The translations under genes and the position numbers were made by a program. Source: Oscillospiraceae bacterium (lineage in GTDB: Bacteria > Bacillota > Clostridia > UMGS1883 > UMGS1540). From it: a DNA stretch of 64,000 bases. Of this stretch, positions 26,352 to 32,500 are shown in pieces (the first letter of the stretch is position 1; each line of letters begins with the position of its first letter). The stretch lies in contig SVJY01000003.1 in the NCBI GenBank assembly GCA_015068765.1, forward strand, positions 1,416 through 65,415, written 5' to 3'. The notes under the pieces were generated by a model that made no database searches, had not been told where the DNA came from, and was given only the letters and a program-made list of their open reading frames with translations.

Positions 26352-26380
26352 TTGACAAGCCTAAACCGTTTTAGTATAAT
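26352..26380 (+). promoter_or_regulatory. Consensus sigma-A promoter of the aminotransferase operon, with an embedded pseudo-palindrome
   Basis: TTGACA (26352-26357), 17 bp, TATAAT (26375-26380). The spacer contains taaaccgtttta, a CG-centred pseudo-palindrome of the LacI/GalR operator type. Confidence 0.6.
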
Positions 26381-26452: not shown

Positions 26453-27667
26453 ATGGCAAGAGCAGGCGGACCGGGTTCTTTTGTATTCGGTGAAGAAGAA
26501 AGAAAAGAAGTTATGGAGGTGCTGGAGGGAAGATATTTATTCCGCTACGGTGCCCCTGATGTGGAAGGATATACCCACAAGGTTGTAGATTTTGAAGATG
26601 CCCTGAAAAAGACCATGGGTGCAAAGTATGCCGTTGCCACCACAAGCGGCACATGCTCTCTCCTTGCGTCCCTTGCCGCTTTAGGCATCGGTGCAGGGGA
26701 TGAGGTTATTGTTCCCGGCTATACTTTTATCGCTTCCATCTCTACCATTATGCTGGCAGGTGCCATTCCGGTTTTAGCGGAAATTGACGAATCCCTCACC
26801 ATTGATCCTACGAAGATTGAAGCACTCATCACCCCTAAAACACGGGCCATTATGCCTGTACATATGCTGGGGAACCCCTGTGACCTTGAGAAGATTATGG
26901 AAATTGCAAACCGCCATAATCTGTACGTGATCGAGGATTGCTGCCAGGCCGTTGGTGCAAGCTACAAGGGCAAACGCTGCGGTACCTACGGCAACATCGG
27001 TGCTTTCTCCCTGAATATTTTTAAGACCATTTCTACCGGTGACGGCGGTGCGGTCATCACAAACGACGAAAATCTCTACGAAAGAGCCTTCGGGTATCAT
27101 GACCAGGGCCATAAGCCGAACCGTACCGGCGTTGAAATCGGCAACCGCAGTATCATCGGTATGAATATGCGTATGAACGAGCTGACCGGTGCTGTTGCCG
27201 TTGCACAGACCCGGAAGCTGGATGAAATTTTGACAACGCTGCGGACGAAGAAGGCTATGCTGAAGGAACTGCTTTCCGATCTGCCCCACATTTCCTTCCG
27301 TAAAATCAACGACGAAGGCGAATGTGCAACCCTTCTCACGCTGCTGTTCGATACAAAAGAGCTGGCAGAAAAGTTCTGTGAAAAGACCGGCGGCAGACCC
27401 ATTGCCTATTCCGGCTGGCACGTATATAACAACATGGAGCAGGTTCTCGGCAAGCTTCTGCCGGCAAAAACCATGAACGTAAACGACAGGGTATACGAAA
27501 AGCATATGCTTCCCCAGACGGACGATATCTTAGAGCGTGCCGTGAACATCAGCGTCGGCGTTGTGGATAAGGGTCTGGGCTCCGGCTACGGTATCAACAT
27601 TCTTTCTACAGAAGAAGAAATCAAGGACGTTGCCAAAAATATCCGTGAAATCATTTTAAGCCTTTAA
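26453..27667 (+). CDS. DegT/DnrJ/EryC1/StrS-family PLP-dependent sugar aminotransferase
   Basis: 404 aa. Fold-type I motifs VIVPGYTFIASI, MPVHMLGNPCD, and the Lys-containing FSLNIFKTISTGDGG. Confidence 0.85.
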   Translation: MARAGGPGSFVFGEEERKEVMEVLEGRYLFRYGAPDVEGYTHKVVDFEDALKKTMGAKYAVATTSGTCSLLASLAALGIGAGDEVIVPGYTFIASISTIMLAGAIPVLAEIDESLTIDPTKIEALITPKTRAIMPVHMLGNPCDLEKIMEIANRHNLYVIEDCCQAVGASYKGKRCGTYGNIGAFSLNIFKTISTGDGGAVITNDENLYERAFGYHDQGHKPNRTGVEIGNRSIIGMNMRMNELTGAVAVAQTRKLDEILTTLRTKKAMLKELLSDLPHISFRKINDEGECATLLTLLFDTKELAEKFCEKTGGRPIAYSGWHVYNNMEQVLGKLLPAKTMNVNDRVYEKHMLPQTDDILERAVNISVGVVDKGLGSGYGINILSTEEEIKDVAKNIREIILSL

Positions 27668-29909: not shown

Positions 29910-30629
29910 ATGAATATTTTAGCTGTTGGGGCACATCCGGATGACGTTGAAATAAACTGTGCCGGAACCCTTGCAAAATACGCAGCACAGGGCCATAAGA
30001 TTTTTATTTGCACTGCAACAAGCGGCAATGTCGGTTCTGCTACCTTGCCAAAGGATGAAATTGCCAAAATCCGCAAGGCCGAGGCGGCAAAGAGTGCAGC
30101 CATTATCGGTGCTGAGTACATTTGCCTTGACTATGATGACGAGCTTTTTTATGAGGATAGAGAGGTTCGCATCAAATTTATCAATATGGTACGTCATTGC
30201 AAGCCGGATGTTATTTTCGTCAATAACCTTAAGGATTATAATCCTGACCACGAGCTTACAGGGAAGATTATAACCGATATTCAGGTTATGTATCCAATTG
30301 CAAAGATTAAAACAGAAGAGCCCCCGTGCGACATTTTTCCGGTCGTTTACTATTACGAGCCGGCAAAAGGCCTTAATTTTATCCCGACCGATTATGTAGA
30401 CATTACCGACTTTTATGAAACAAAGCGACAGATGCTATTATGCCATGAAAGCCAGAAGCTTTGGATGGCTGATAACTATGCAGGCTTTACCGATGGCGAT
30501 GACGCATTTACAGACAGCATCAGAATTATGTCTGAATATCGCGGAATGCAGTGCGGTGTCAAATACGCAGAAGGTTTCGTAAAAGCAAACGACGGCTACA
30601 AAGTTCGTCCGGGCTCCTTATTACCGTAA
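29910..30629 (+). CDS. PIG-L/LmbE-family N-acetyl-sugar deacetylase
   Basis: AHPDDVE zinc motif (ILAVGAHPDDVEINCAG), plus a later HELTG and CHESQ. Confidence 0.85.
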   Translation: MNILAVGAHPDDVEINCAGTLAKYAAQGHKIFICTATSGNVGSATLPKDEIAKIRKAEAAKSAAIIGAEYICLDYDDELFYEDREVRIKFINMVRHCKPDVIFVNNLKDYNPDHELTGKIITDIQVMYPIAKIKTEEPPCDIFPVVYYYEPAKGLNFIPTDYVDITDFYETKRQMLLCHESQKLWMADNYAGFTDGDDAFTDSIRIMSEYRGMQCGVKYAEGFVKANDGYKVRPGSLLP

Positions 30630-30635
30630 AAATTC

Positions 30636-30674
30636 GGGGGTGTAAAATGATTTTTGATAATTATTTTACACCCC
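30636..30674 (+). terminator. Hairpin terminator after the PIG-L gene, built from inverted GGGGGTGTAAAAT units
   Basis: gggggtgtaaaat (13-nt loop) attttacacccc, followed by tttgttttg. Confidence 0.6.
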
Positions 30675-30716
30675 TTTGTTTTGTTAGTTTCAAACCCCCT
30701 TTTTTCTGTAAAATTC

Positions 30717-30745
30717 TTGCTTTTTCCGGGCGACTGTGTTAAAAT
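30717..30745 (+). promoter_or_regulatory. Predicted promoter of the small-ORF (toxin-like) mRNA
   Basis: TTGCTT (30717-30722), 17 bp, extended -10 TGtTAAAAT (30737-30745). Confidence 0.5.
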
Positions 30746-30844
30746 ACCATTGTTGGAGAAATCCAGCCTGATATCGGGCAAGTTCGAGGGCGGTTAGCCA
30801 CCTTTTTATTCTGCTGTTATCAAGCAGGGATTGGGGGTGGTTTT

Positions 30845-30913
30845 ATGGGAAACGAATACATAATTTATTTTATGATTATTCTGTTACTTCTTGTAATAAC
30901 CATAAAAAAATAA
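30845..30913 (+). CDS. 22-codon hydrophobic peptide, type-I-toxin-like
   Basis: Below the ORF-track size cutoff. ATG 30845 follows a G-rich SD (gggggtgg). The peptide is MGNEYIIYFMIILLLLVITIKK: one TM helix and a C-terminal KK. The stop sits at the foot of a bidirectional terminator. Confidence 0.5.
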   Translation: MGNEYIIYFMIILLLLVITIKK

Positions 30914-30987
30914 CTGCCCCGGTCGAATGGAAGCAGTTATTTTAACTTAACCTTCGGCTAACCGCTTTGCGGTCTTGCCCTTTATCT
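30903..30987 (-). ncRNA. Predicted ~85-nt convergent antisense sRNA (antitoxin-like)
   Basis: A perfect consensus promoter on the minus strand (see next feature). The transcript would run through ggctaaccgc.../gggcaag... into hairpin taactgc/gcagtta (30911-30939) and a T7 run. It overlaps the last codons and the 3' UTR of the small ORF. Confidence 0.5.
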
Positions 30988-30993
30988 GTTTAT

Positions 30994-31022
30994 ATTATAC
31001 TCTAAATATTTCCTTTTGTCAA
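30994..31022 (-). promoter_or_regulatory. Consensus sigma-A promoter firing leftwards
   Basis: The minus strand reads TTGACA (31022-31017), a 17-bp spacer aaaggaaatatttagag, and TATAAT (30999-30994). Confidence 0.65.
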
Positions 31023-31124
31023 TAAAAATTAAGAAAAAAGCTATGCAAACGAAAAAATCGTCTGTATGGCCTTTTTATAGAAAGTCCTTTATAGGCCTGT
31101 TTTTTTGAAAACTGTCACTGTGGT

Positions 31125-31357
31125 GCTTTTTACATCCCCTTTTGGGGATAGGAAAAATGGATGCGGAACGGTCTATCCGAATCCGAAGCTGTACATTGGT
31201 ACTGCGAGAGGTTCGGATGGGCCGTAGCAAAAAATGAATTCCATTAAAAAGAAAAACCCTCTTGGGGTTTTTCCACCCATGTTCCTTACGGCAAACACGG
31301 ATTATCTATTGATCTTTTCCTATTCTTTTTTGCGGTCGGCGCCATTTTTACATCCCC
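31125..31357 (-). repeat. REP/MITE-like repeat, composite copy C (homologous to 50511-50671)
   Basis: gctttttacatcccc-tttt-ggggataggaaaaatgg at the left. At the right, ...ccatgttccttacggcaaacacgg...cttttttgcggtcggcgccatttttacatcccc abuts the LacI-family stop codon. Module-by-module similarity to copy B, but with a different internal hairpin (aaaaaccctcttggggttttt). Confidence 0.65.
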
Positions 31358-32361
31358 TATTCTTTTAGAGTATAGACGGAATCCCGTTCTATCAGTGTCA
31401 TGGGAAGAAGGCGACTCTCCGGATTTTTCCCCCGGATTTTCTGCAAGAGCATATCCGTTGCCATTGCTCCCATTTCCACCTTATCGATACCGATGGTGGT
31501 AAGCTTCGGCTCGATATACCGGGAAAGCAGAATATCGTCAATCCCGATAAAGGAAACATCCCGTGGGAGCGAAAGCGCTAAATCCTTAGCACAAAGCATG
31601 GCACCGATTGCAAAGCTGTCCACGGTGCAGACGATGGCGGTAGGCCTGTCCTCTCTGCTAAGAAGATTTCGGGCCGCTCTGTAGGCCGTCTCCTCGCCCG
31701 TGGCCGTCATGCCGCAAAACGCCGGATTTATGGGAAGGGAATGGGTCTTCATGGTTTCCTTGAAGCCGGCTAAGGTCTGTGTATAAAAATCGGGAACGGT
31801 TTCCGAGGTAATAATGGCAATTTTTTCATGGCCGCGCCGAATAAGATATTCTGTAGCATCCTCGGTTGCCCTCCGGTAATCCGGTGCCACAGAGGGGATT
31901 TTGTCCCCGCCCAAATGGGAGTCCACCACCACGCAGGGGATGCCGCAGGCAATGGCCTTGTCCATAAGCTTTGGCGGGACATCCTGCATGAAGATGATGC
32001 CGTCTGTGTCTCCCGAATACACGATGTCGGGAAGCTCCGTCCGGGAGGCAGGCAAATTGGCTATGGTAATCGTATATCCGTATTTCTGGCTTTGGCTTAA
32101 AATCCCTCTTGTGACCTCAAAATAGAAAAGGTCTTCAAAGGGAGAGGAAAAGGCATTCACCATAAGACAAATATTAAAGCTCTTATTCATCAGTAGCTTT
32201 TTGGAGTTGAGATTTGGCCTAAACCCGGTTTCATCAATGATTTTTTGCACCCGTTTCCGGGTTTCATCACTCACGCCGGGCTTGTTATTCAGAACAAAGG
32301 AAACCGCAGTGACAGACACCTCTGCCATTTTGGCAATTTCCTTTACGGTCAGCTTCTTCAC
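31357..32361 (-). CDS. LacI/GalR-family transcriptional regulator
   Basis: HTH LTVKEIAKMAEVSVTAVSFVLNN plus a periplasmic-binding-protein-like core. I prefer the GTG start at 32361 after gggggtgag. The track start at 32406 is possible. Confidence 0.85.
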   Translation of the reverse strand: MKKLTVKEIAKMAEVSVTAVSFVLNNKPGVSDETRKRVQKIIDETGFRPNLNSKKLLMNKSFNICLMVNAFSSPFEDLFYFEVTRGILSQSQKYGYTITIANLPASRTELPDIVYSGDTDGIIFMQDVPPKLMDKAIACGIPCVVVDSHLGGDKIPSVAPDYRRATEDATEYLIRRGHEKIAIITSETVPDFYTQTLAGFKETMKTHSLPINPAFCGMTATGEETAYRAARNLLSREDRPTAIVCTVDSFAIGAMLCAKDLALSLPRDVSFIGIDDILLSRYIEPKLTTIGIDKVEMGAMATDMLLQKIRGKNPESRLLPMTLIERDSVYTLKE

Positions 32362-32500
32362 GCTCTCACCCCCAGATATAAATTTAGTCACTAAAAAATT
32401 ATACACGAAACGAGAATGAAATGCAAGGCTTTGGGCTTTGTTTTTTGAAAATAATCCTAATTTTCTTATCCTTGCGGATAAGCTATCGGGAGGAAAAATA

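Follow-up and report, generated by a model that had tools for sequence, protein, structure and literature searches.

A probable type I toxin-antitoxin-like module with a 22-codon ORF in a Clostridia spacer, and its relatives in gut bacteria and phages

The shortest type I toxins characterised to date are those of the Ibs/Sib systems of E. coli, at 18-19 aa. The geometry of antisense control differs from one type I family to another. The Sib antisense RNAs span the entire ORF, while in the Fst family the mRNA and the antitoxin interact outside their region of overlap (T1TAdb paper), and the antisense RNA of the E. faecalis EF3263 locus is ~110 nt long (PMC2887945). In the bsrG/SR4 system, structure probing of bsrG mRNA has revealed a helix, P1, formed from the 5' and 3' ends of the molecule, with the Shine-Dalgarno (SD) sequence held within a hairpin. 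SR4 targets stem-loop SL3 and the 3' half of P1, and its binding lengthens the SD helix from 4 to 8 bp; the experimentally demonstrated effects are a block of translation and degradation of the mRNA (PMC3834814). Reviews record that most Clostridia gave no matches when searched by homology for the type I toxins known so far (PMC6563280).

Here, we describe a locus in a 64-kb stretch of DNA (the window, 64,000 nucleotides) whose host is a ruminant-gut Clostridia MAG lineage. One spacer in this window probably carries a type I toxin-antitoxin-like module with an architecture of the TxpA/BsrG kind, its transcription and toxicity being presumed.

The locus and its setting

The module sits between convergent genes for a PIG-L-family deacetylase and LacI, and accounts for most of their 728-nt 'gene-free' spacer. 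An earlier note on this DNA had pointed to six features here: a plus-strand promoter (TTGCTT-17-TGtTAAAAT), pairing of a leader CCACC with the SD GGTGG, a 22-codon ORF, a hairpin flanked by A7 and T4, a perfect minus-strand promoter, and a pair of imperfect inverted arms. Each is present, and non-random, at the positions listed here.

30717-30745, plus strand: sense (toxin mRNA) promoter, TTGCTT (30717-30722), a 17-nt spacer and an extended -10, TGtTAAAAT (30737-30745)
30752-30767, plus strand: predicted 5'-terminal stem-loop of the mRNA, GUUGGA-GAAA-UCCAGC in the minimum-energy fold
30776-30799, plus strand: 5' strand of P1, core GGTTAGCC at 30792-30799; pairs with 30956-30980 in the fold
30793-30802, plus strand: anti-SD segment GUUAGCCACC, of which CCACC (30798-30802) pairs with the SD in the constrained fold
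30833-30840, plus strand: Shine-Dalgarno sequence GGGGGTGG, ending 4 nt before the ATG; predicted to be sequestered
30845-30913, plus strand: 22-codon ORF with ATG start, peptide MGNEYIIYFMIILLLLVITIKK, hydrophobic from Y5 to I20, with a KK tail
30904-30943, minus strand: intrinsic terminator of the antisense RNA, core TAACTGC/GCAGTTA (30911-30939), then U7
30904-30987, minus strand: predicted antisense (antitoxin) RNA of ~84 nt, placed from the promoter and terminator positions
30956-30980, plus strand: 3' strand of P1, core GGCTAACC at 30956-30963
30994-31022, minus strand: antisense promoter, perfect TTGACA-17-TATAAT (12/12)

The note considered the peptide too short for automatic annotation, and gene callers and curated models do overlook the family to which it belongs. 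Rfam at gathering thresholds finds three tRNAs in the whole window and nothing else, and Rfam 15 (including RF01412), run on 30600-31400 with E up to 10, returns only chance-level matches. The peptide matches nothing in Pfam (including PF16935 at E up to 10) or in NCBIfam.

Searches of the 64-kb window with blastn, tblastn and nhmmer found no second copy of the element, and it is absent from the PIG-L neighbourhoods of 80 GTDB loci (PIG-L at 62-83% aa identity). The PIG-L/LacI spacers of related species measure only ~40-260 nt. By sequence comparison, the element is a lineage-specific insertion into this spacer.

Promoters, RNA folding and antisense control

The sense promoter can be read directly in the sequence. 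Its -35 hexamer matches TTGACA at only 3 of 6 positions, and since the consensus scan requires 4/6 in the -35, the promoter is missing from the scan output. The toxin mRNA is predicted to start at ~30752; a 5' hairpin similar to the one listed above was read by eye in the close relative L154. The antisense promoter is one of just two perfect 12/12 sites in the 64 kb, against 0.02 expected.

The stretch 30752-30990 folds far more stably than 200 shuffled versions of itself (z = -7.7). In the minimum-energy fold the two arms, 30776-30799 and 30956-30980, pair as 7 + 16 bp to form the closing helix, P1. The 3' strand of P1 holds a local hairpin of its own (ACCGC-UUU-GCGGU) and is entirely complementary to the predicted antisense RNA. 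The SD is predicted to be sequestered whether or not the antisense RNA is present, its probability of being unpaired being 0.06 for the mRNA alone and 0.03 when the antisense RNA is bound (constrained fold); this agrees with the CCACC/GGTGG pairing proposed in the note. Once P1 is opened, the whole GUUAGCCACC segment pairs with the SD, so that the constrained fold of the window mRNA reproduces an SD-helix extension like that of bsrG.

The hairpin that follows the ORF has 11-nt arms (30907-30917 and 30933-30943) that are 100% complementary, and the TAA stop codon supplies the first three bases of its core stem. The A7 at 30904-30910, which is the U7 of the minus strand, doubles as the KK codons, and T4 lies at 30940-30943. 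The earlier note took this hairpin to be a shared bidirectional terminator. That description is convincing for the minus strand, with its U7, and weak for the plus strand, where the hairpin is followed in the window by UUUU and then AAC. Across the family of related elements introduced below, 50/79 elements have an A-run ahead of the hairpin and only 13/79 a T-run behind it, the threshold in each case being at least 6 of 9. The hairpin thus appears, family-wide, to stop mainly the antisense RNA, which means that transcription of the mRNA must continue past it to reach the 3' arm. Downstream of P1 the sense mRNA has a U-rich tract only, with no clear intrinsic terminator. A candidate sense hairpin with a T7 run was read by eye near 31070-31107.

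In the predicted antisense RNA, a spacer joins a 5' hairpin to the terminator hairpin (fold of -27.8 kcal/mol, z = -3.6). Its overlap with the mRNA begins at the final two codons and the stop, and runs through the hairpin behind the ORF and across the 3' strand of P1. How might these parts work together? In the mechanism that we propose, the moderate promoter at 30717-30745 would drive an mRNA from near 30752, in which segments 30776-30799 and 30956-30980 would close the 23-bp helix P1 around the SD-sequestering hairpin, the 22-codon ORF and the post-ORF hairpin. The consensus-strength promoter at 31022-30994 would yield the ~84-nt antisense RNA, ending at the hairpin and U7 and able to pair fully both with this hairpin in the mRNA and with the 3' strand of P1. 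Binding would generate an RNA duplex of ~85 bp, a likely substrate for cleavage by RNase III, and would also release the 5' strand of P1, the freed GUUAGCCACC being predicted by folding to lengthen the helix that covers the SD. The outcome would be a block of translation and degradation of the mRNA, as with SR4 and bsrG. Any peptide that was made would be expected to insert into the membrane and, presumably, to be toxic there.

A family of related elements

A DNA pattern based on the arms identified more than 120 metagenome loci and, in a looser gapped form, 32 viral contigs. The pattern demanded the arms and a TATTATA box, so the conservation of those bases is inflated in this collection and loci bearing the -10 were pre-selected. 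The exact 3'-arm pattern gave zero matches in viral contigs, and the sole match in a phage blastn search was an irrelevant AT-rich stretch of a rodent virus. Those metagenome sources with readable names include human gut and fermentation. Two to four copies, often in tandem, occur in 25/120 loci, and Monoglobus pectinilyticus, a cultured organism in which the system could be tested, has four tandem copies (NZ_OY725742.1, 153.2-154.5 kb). The closest homologue of the window peptide is encoded in a phage, between the portal and large terminase genes.

The family layout begins with a sense promoter, a covarying P1, a sequestered SD and a 20-38 codon ORF for a hydrophobic, basic-tailed peptide; there follow a hairpin whose stem starts at the stop codon and a near-consensus convergent promoter. 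A family profile built without the window matches it at 30777-30992 (E = 2e-23). Many members encode TxpA/BsrG-like peptides, including MTxYE and MTVFEA types, and a profile of 14 elements with MTxYE-type peptides matches the window at 30780-30984 with E = 1.6e-17, or 9e-8 when the bases forced by the search pattern are masked, so that the window locus shares nucleotide homology with loci for TxpA/BsrG-type peptides. Against Hol_Tox (PF16935), one scaffold relative scores 24.5 bits (cut-off 23.3) and two others 16 bits. Rfam matched none of the 19 member loci searched, with the SPβ positive control at 210 bits. As judged from these comparisons, the element is one member of a large family in gut Clostridia and their phages that has so far been overlooked. 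The earlier note had suggested an nhmmer search for relatives in which the ORF, promoters and hairpin might be retained together, and all of these are indeed conserved across the family.

In 61/86 elements a sense promoter matching at least 10/12 positions precedes the 5' arm, compared with 2/86 in shuffles. For the convergent promoter, 49/86 members show the full 12/12 consensus, with a -35 box that the search pattern did not force, and it outscores the sense promoter across the family. The SD motif GAAAGG(G/A)GGTG is conserved family-wide, as is, in the family alignment, the anti-SD adjoining GAAAGGGGGTG. Eight pairs of the hairpin stem show compensatory changes. Alignment and folding of 63 whole elements (MAFFT and RNAalifold) recovered only the core of P1 and the hairpin, because bulges put the outer P1 helix out of register. 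Covariation of the outer helix was therefore assessed from duplex energies: the arm extensions of 88 unique elements form cognate duplexes of -19.1 kcal/mol, versus -10.9 for non-cognate ones (p = 2e-28). At the two inner positions of P1, G-U pairs predominate, and the helix is therefore specific to the sense strand.

Could the element instead be non-coding, a MITE-like structure, terminator cluster or sRNA in which the 22-codon ORF is incidental? Its arms are inverted repeats, it is inserted in a single lineage into a spacer of ~40-260 nt in related species, and its AT-rich interior might give hydrophobic codons through composition alone. The family data nevertheless make this extremely unlikely. 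An SD-linked ORF is present in 80/91 unique elements, whereas each of the other five frames is open in just 1-40 elements out of 76. The enrichment of T is strong and confined to the second codon position (52%; positions 1 and 3 have 22% and 26%). The spacing between SD and start codon is conserved, as is the position of the stop codon at the hairpin, and the peptides (20-38 aa, with C-termini of net positive charge) diverge in sequence yet stay hydrophobic with a basic tail. In addition, strand-specific G-U pairs in P1 do not fit terminal inverted repeats acting at the DNA level, and there is one copy in the 64-kb window, with none dispersed. A MITE or plain terminator in particular was rejected in view of the single copy in the window, the one-strand G-U pairs and the coding periodicity.

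Within the family, the window peptide belongs, by its sequence, to a shorter MEY…IKK-type subfamily (~20-24 aa among those collected) that goes unrecognised by Pfam, NCBIfam and Rfam. Homologous peptides are MGIEYIICFMIVLLLLVITIKK (L007), MEKEYIISFMILLLLIVISIKK (L154), MNTEYIISFMILLLLILITIKK (phage contig L229) and MEYVYIIIFMIVFITLIESIKK (Monoglobus). Comparison of this subfamily with TxpA-like peptides by hhalign gave a probability of 47%, and nine of ten peptides checked against a collection of 15 billion proteins were absent from it.

The comparison with L007 bears on whether the window copy could be a decayed or silenced relic, structurally intact but with its expression or function lost in this genome. 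The three ORF differences between the two are all non-synonymous, which suggests weak purifying selection on the exact residues; the sense -35 is sub-consensus (3/6); and some family members do seem degenerate, 11/91 being without an SD-linked ORF. Against this, the ORF, SD, both promoters, P1 and terminator are all intact in the window and are preserved in L007 despite ~8% divergence of loops and spacers. The L007 sense promoter is identical to the window's, and its antisense promoter keeps both hexamers with a changed spacer. Considering also that a weak toxin promoter is normal in type I systems (PMC3834814), we regard decay as very unlikely.

A further alternative accepts the RNA circuitry and assigns it a milder role, merely holding down the level of a non-toxic small membrane protein under cis-antisense control, such as a regulatory or phage micro-protein for superinfection exclusion or modulation of a membrane complex. 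The architecture would look identical, and YhzE-2, which has an antisense RNA and is type I-like, is harmless in its native host (Fozo et al., PMC2887945). The hydrophobic stretch from Y5 to I20, at 16 residues, is short for a membrane-spanning helix, and in one scaffold subgroup the encoded peptides, MRITLHIGRFTVTIIVKSRNRHSAK among them, are non-classical. On the other hand, tandem copies, phage carriage, a stronger antisense promoter and SD sequestration are hallmarks of type I systems, and the scaffold relatives encode TxpA/BsrG-type peptides, a group with toxic members (PMC2887945, PMC3834814). A harmless peptide thus seems rather unlikely to us, and the type I toxin-antitoxin reading is supported at every level on which sequence can bear.

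A more tentative idea, possible though on balance doubtful, is that the GGTTAGCC…GGCTAACC scaffold is an RNA chassis, so far unrecognised and very widespread among Firmicutes of gut and rumen and among phages, in which a nearly constant regulatory frame is combined with interchangeable mini-ORFs and a co-transcriptional switch. The constant parts would be the arms of P1, the SD hairpin with GAAAGGGGGUG, the terminator with TAACCGCC and the convergent consensus promoters, and the ORFs would extend from TxpA-like through 20-24-aa MEY…IKK types, plus non-classical ones as above. Four mutually complementary segments, namely the 5' arm, the two halves (5' and 3') of the terminator and the 3' arm, would make up the switch, the 5' arm GGCGGUUA pairing alternatively with the terminator UAAC(C/U)GCC or with the 3' arm. 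If this is true, the switch would hold the nascent mRNA untranslated and stop the antisense terminator from ending the sense transcript.

The window locus and its family contradict the apparent absence of type I toxins from most Clostridia. With predicted toxins down to 20-22 aa, they constitute a well-supported short-toxin variant that is new relative to the known TxpA/BsrG-type systems, and the family supplies a set of naturally occurring variations on the bsrG/SR4 mechanism. Phage-borne members are candidates for stabilisation, defence or moron functions in gut communities.

Comparison with known type I systems

The earlier note likened the layout to fst/RNAII, txpA/RatA and bsrG/SR4. The latter two comparisons are apt; the first is weaker. 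Unlike in Fst/RNAII, complementarity here is the 3' overlap itself, and with this different interaction geometry and a peptide that has no Pfam match at all, membership of the Fst/RNAII (par) family was rejected. Ibs/Sib shares the very short hydrophobic peptide, the tandem multiplication and the routine lack of annotation (PMC2887945). It belongs to another phylum, however, and shows no evident sequence relation to the window locus, in which the antisense RNA covers just the last two codons and the 3' UTR.

TxpA/RatA systems (E. faecalis EF3263 and plasmid 'putative holin-like toxin' genes) resemble the locus in their small membrane-spanning toxin with a basic C-terminus and in an antisense RNA across the 3' end and 3' UTR. 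The window's scaffold relatives encode MTxYE/MTVFEA peptides, one of which passes the PF16935 cut-off, whereas the window peptide lies outside the PF16935 and NCBIfam models. TxpA-type loci on Lactococcus, Listeria and Enterococcus plasmids display a related scaffold by eye: the 5' arm reads ACGGTAGCC or GATGGTGGC, the 3' arm reads GCTACCGT or GTCACCGTC, and the stop codon coincides with a TAACC… hairpin that has an A-run in front of it. They differ in their arm sequences, in an extra upstream mini-ORF and in a separate sense terminator, and their similarity by nhmmer is weak (E = 7e-4 to 0.03).

The closest architectural parallel is with bsrG/SR4, from the B. subtilis prophage SPβ (Rfam RF01412). 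The bsrG locus of SPβ has neither shared arms nor significant nucleotide similarity (nhmmer E = 0.08), and we therefore do not claim direct membership of the bsrG RNA family. The window peptide has 22 aa and lacks the MTVYE N-terminus, compared with 38 aa for that of bsrG; the antisense RNA is predicted at ~84 nt rather than the ~180 nt of SR4; and bsrG has its own terminator, SL4, after P1, where the window has the antisense promoter directly. Both have convergent genes overlapping at their 3' ends, a structured toxin mRNA with an end-to-end P1 and the SD in a short helix, and a stop codon on the 5' side of the post-ORF stem-loop. In both, the antisense RNA, predicted in the case of the window, can pair with this stem-loop as well as with the 3' half of P1, and the antitoxin promoter is the stronger one; extension of the SD helix is predicted here, and prophage carriage recurs among family members. 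On the strength of structure prediction and covariation, the window architecture matches the bsrG/SR4 type of RNA architecture.

Parts and setting of the element

A PIG-L-family deacetylase gene and a convergent LacI-family regulator gene are separated by a 728-nt spacer, which contains the element. An earlier note had proposed that this spacer holds a sense promoter, an SD with a short ORF, a perfect minus-strand promoter, and inverted arms allowing 5'-3' closure of the mRNA, and each of these parts was recovered:

29910-30629, plus strand: PIG-L-family deacetylase gene
30636-30675: terminator of the PIG-L gene
30717-30745, plus strand: sense promoter, TTGCTT-17 nt-TGtTAAAAT (sequence reading of 30300-31500)
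30776-30799 with 30956-30980: arms, base-paired over 7 + 16 bp when 30752-30990 is folded to minimum energy
30833-30840, plus strand: SD GGGGGTGG, 4 nt 5' of the ATG
30845-30913, plus strand: ORF with ATG start, product MGNEYIIYFMIILLLLVITIKK (sequence reading)
30904-30910: A7, preceding the hairpin and forming both Lys codons
30907-30917 / 30933-30943: hairpin, an 11-nt perfect inverted repeat (repeat search), followed by T4 (sequence reading)
31022-30994, minus strand: antisense consensus promoter, 12/12 (promoter scan)
31274-31250, minus strand: LacI terminator
31357-32406, minus strand: LacI-family regulator gene, convergent to the PIG-L gene

The arms are predicted to form P1, a long helix that closes the mRNA ends. 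The minimum-energy fold of 30752-30990 reaches -92.2 kcal/mol (z = -7.7), with 0 of 200 shuffles as stable, and the predicted minus-strand RNA is likewise more stable than its shuffles (z = -3.6). The 64-kb window has two perfect TTGACA-17-TATAAT sites where 0.02 would be expected; the only other one, at 26352-26380 (plus strand), is about 70 nt upstream of a 404-aa ORF (26453-27667). A search of the window for further copies of the element left its copy number at one.

For the host, an uncultured Clostridia bacterium, the nearest GTDB genomes are MAGs from ruminant and other animal guts, with PIG-L amino acid identity of at most 83%. Several of these relatives retain the convergent PIG-L/LacI order with a spacer of just 40-260 nt or so that lacks the element, which makes it a lineage-specific insertion. 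Metagenome contigs encoding an identical PIG-L protein also have the element. One of these, L007, is 92% identical over the spacer: it preserves the arms, the SD, the hexamers of both promoters and the stem of the hairpin, and the differences fall in the hairpin loop (the most variable part of the element in this comparison), the spacer 30940-30955 and three codons (N3I, Y8C, I12V).

A stable minus-strand hairpin at 31155-31240 (arms 31168-31194 / 31199-31225), between the LacI terminator and the antisense promoter, has a core, CTCGCAGTACC…GTACAGC.TCGG, similar to a tandem pair of hairpin units that a related MAG has between PIG-L and LacI (L011 1003-1195, mean column identity 72%). No further copy was found elsewhere in the window, and the hairpin may represent a repeat of the REP-like or 3'-UTR kind. 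A 17-nt sequence, TTTTTACATCCCCT(T/A)TT, is directly repeated at 31127-31143 and 31345-31361 and flanks the region downstream of LacI, with a related inverted copy, GGGGGTGTAAAA, at 30636-30647 within the PIG-L terminator stem.

Related loci in gut Clostridia and phages

A distant blastn match among plasmid records was found in Monoglobus pectinilyticus (NZ_OY725742.1), which carries four units in tandem. In every unit a sense promoter and a GGTTAGCC arm are followed by an SD, a 22-codon ORF encoding MEYVYIIIFMIVFITLIESIKK or MDYMYIIIFMIIFITLIESIKK, a hairpin at the stop codon and a GGCTAACCG arm, and a TTGACA…TATAAT promoter faces them convergently. Copies 2-4 of this array (L089 2290-3600) encode the same peptide and copy 1 is three residues off, while the hairpin loops differ in all four (CCCTTATCCCAAGGAACG, CCCTTACCCCAAGGAACG, CCCTCTTAGCTAGAATAG, CCCTCCCCCAAGGATTG); such loop variation fits either neutral drift or a diversifying site of loop-loop recognition. 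Adjoining the array, at L089 3620-4620, is a separate threefold direct repeat with units of about 420 nt that start CGGCTTCCCCGGAGGGGA(C/G)GACGATCTCGCCCGGGCTCGGCGGGCGAAACTGGG and are unrelated to the toxin-like elements.

A pattern built from the arms and antisense -10 box alone (GGTTAGCC-N140-170-GGCTRACCG-N20-34-TATTATA) matched at least 120 stretches in a metagenome collection and 32 viral contigs. Orienting the matches listed by hairpin position gave 91 unique elements. Of 120 loci listed, 25 carry 2-4 copies, often in tandem. One viral match, L229, is a genuine phage contig, with the element flanked by the genes for portal and large terminase. The window's locus belongs to this large family, which is unannotated and occurs in gut Clostridia and in their phages.

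One scaffold subgroup (L090, L105, L107, L112 and others) has a shorter arm-to-arm span of 188 nt and is the commonest type among the viral contigs (13 of the 32, L214-L245). Its MRITLHIGRFTVTIIVKSRNRHSAK-type peptides, whose ORF extends into the terminator hairpin, look less like one membrane-spanning helix, and the subgroup may carry functionally different cargo. A THF riboswitch (RF01831, 71.5 bits; L140 874-964, minus strand) that shares a short metagenome contig with one family member is probably a mere neighbour.

Coding and structural constraint

An SD-linked ORF of 20-38 codons (mostly 22-28) is present in 80 of the 91 unique elements among the matches listed, and in all but 4 of these ORFs the last six residues are net positive. 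Among the same matches, T occupies codon position 2 in 52% of cases, compared with 22% for position 1 and 26% for position 3, a periodicity expected of hydrophobic coding and not of structure alone; the five alternative frames over the same spans are open in 1 to 40 of 76 distinct sequences, and the hairpin stem usually begins with the stop codon. Nearest to the window's peptide among the matches listed are MGIEYIICFMIVLLLLVITIKK (L007), MEKEYIISFMILLLLIVISIKK (L154, human gut) and MNTEYIISFMILLLLILITIKK (L229), which differ from it by I/L/V-type replacements, alongside synonymous changes.

The outer part of P1 covaries beyond the core fixed by the search pattern (GGCGTTGCC/GGCAACGCC, GCAGATGGTG/CACCATCTGC, and GGGCAAG/CTTGCCC in the window). 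Among the matches listed, cognate arm extensions form duplexes of -19.1 kcal/mol versus -10.9 when the arms come from different elements (Mann-Whitney p = 2e-28), and 73 of 79 elements fold at minimum energy with P1 formed. Could the arms simply be a DNA-level repeat? In a 63-sequence alignment the two innermost variable pairs are mostly G-U (36/63 and 26/63), and because these would become C·A mismatches on the other strand, P1 is a structure of the sense RNA rather than such a repeat. The hairpin stem shows double compensatory changes at 8 pairs in that alignment.

Among the matches listed, the antisense promoter is perfect (12/12) in 49 of 86 elements, its -10 box being partly forced by the search pattern and its -35 box unforced. 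For the sense promoter a score of 10/12 or better is reached in 61 of 86 (2/86 in shuffles); by these counts the antisense promoter is systematically the stronger. The hairpin had been proposed as a bidirectional terminator shared by both transcripts. Its assignment to the antisense RNA stands, since among the matches listed an A-run of at least 6/9 lies upstream in 50 of 79 elements, but a T-run of at least 6/9 lies downstream in only 13 of 79, so that the hairpin is mainly the terminator of the antisense RNA. The Lys codons are predicted to double as template for the antisense terminator U-tract. The putative sense mRNA must then read through the hairpin to include the 3' arm; its end may lie in the U-rich tract that follows P1, or further on at a candidate hairpin with a T7 run near 31070-31107 (read by eye).

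Relation to TxpA/BsrG-type systems

Many scaffold relatives encode TxpA/BsrG-type peptides (e.g. MTVFEAITLMIAFAALIV…, MTLYELIMLIIGIAML…), one of which exceeds the Pfam Hol_Tox cut-off (24.5 vs 23.3 bits), with two others weak; the window's peptide and another of its MEY…IKK subfamily gave no Pfam or NCBIfam match. Homology is supported at the level of the locus, in that a nucleotide profile from the TxpA-like-peptide elements alone matches the window's element at E = 1.6e-17, and at E = 9e-8 with pattern-forced bases masked; for the peptides themselves, hhalign of the MEY…IKK profile with the TxpA-like one gave a probability of 47%. Plasmid loci from Listeria, Enterococcus and Lactococcus (L211-L213), two of them (L211 and L213) annotated as 'putative holin-like toxin', have a recognisably related scaffold with other arm sequences and weak nhmmer scores. 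The annotated CDS of L211 and L213 (53-59 aa) begins well upstream of the toxin's own SD/ATG; the real toxin at such loci is probably about 27 aa, so the annotation is possibly over-extended. Reading by eye shows a short mini-ORF after the first SD in L211 (MVYQGFTPGKE) and L212.

Rfam models match neither the window's element nor 19 member loci (210 bits for the SPβ bsrG control), and 9 of 10 peptides tested are absent from a 15-billion-protein collection. TxpA-like sequences have been detected in some Clostridiales (Fozo et al., PMC2887945), a review of Clostridia states that homology searches with known toxins came back empty in most species (PMC6563280), and T1TAdb holds 24 families, mostly from cultured genomes (T1TAdb paper); our literature search found no description of the scaffold or its 20-24-aa members. 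The family, ORF periodicity, P1 covariation and promoters together favour the type I toxin-antitoxin reading, and the locus is best described as a candidate new short-toxin variant of the TxpA/BsrG-type architecture. We hold this architecture and family assignment with good confidence; transcription, toxicity, and the RNase III and SD-occlusion steps are suggested by analogy and fold prediction. The family offers no new principle but a sizeable annotation blind spot, and its members in a cultured organism are open to experiment.

In probed bsrG mRNA, the 5' and 3' ends form a long P1, the SD sits in a 4-bp helix, and the stop codon is in the 5' part of SL3; SR4 is directed at SL3 and the 3' half of P1, and its binding frees the P1 5' strand and the SD helix extends to 8 bp, which blocks translation on top of RNase III-dependent decay (PMC3834814). 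Folding of the window's element agrees with the SD occlusion that had been proposed. The SD is paired in the predicted free fold (P(unpaired) = 0.06), and when 30904-30987 is made unavailable, as in the antisense duplex, freed GUUAGCCACC pairs with GGGGGUGGUU and 8/8 SD bases are paired. The antisense RNA would pair with 30904-30987 and release the 5' arm, which would lengthen the SD-covering helix, and occlusion plus RNase III decay, by analogy, would silence the toxin mRNA. An alternative partner for the 5' arm GGCGGUUA is the terminator 5' half (UAACUGCC in the window, UAACCGCC in most members), which may point to a metastable co-transcriptional fold. The predicted layout is the same as that of probed bsrG mRNA, and the SR4 promoter is stronger than the bsrG promoter (PMC3834814), the ranking that recurs across the window's family.
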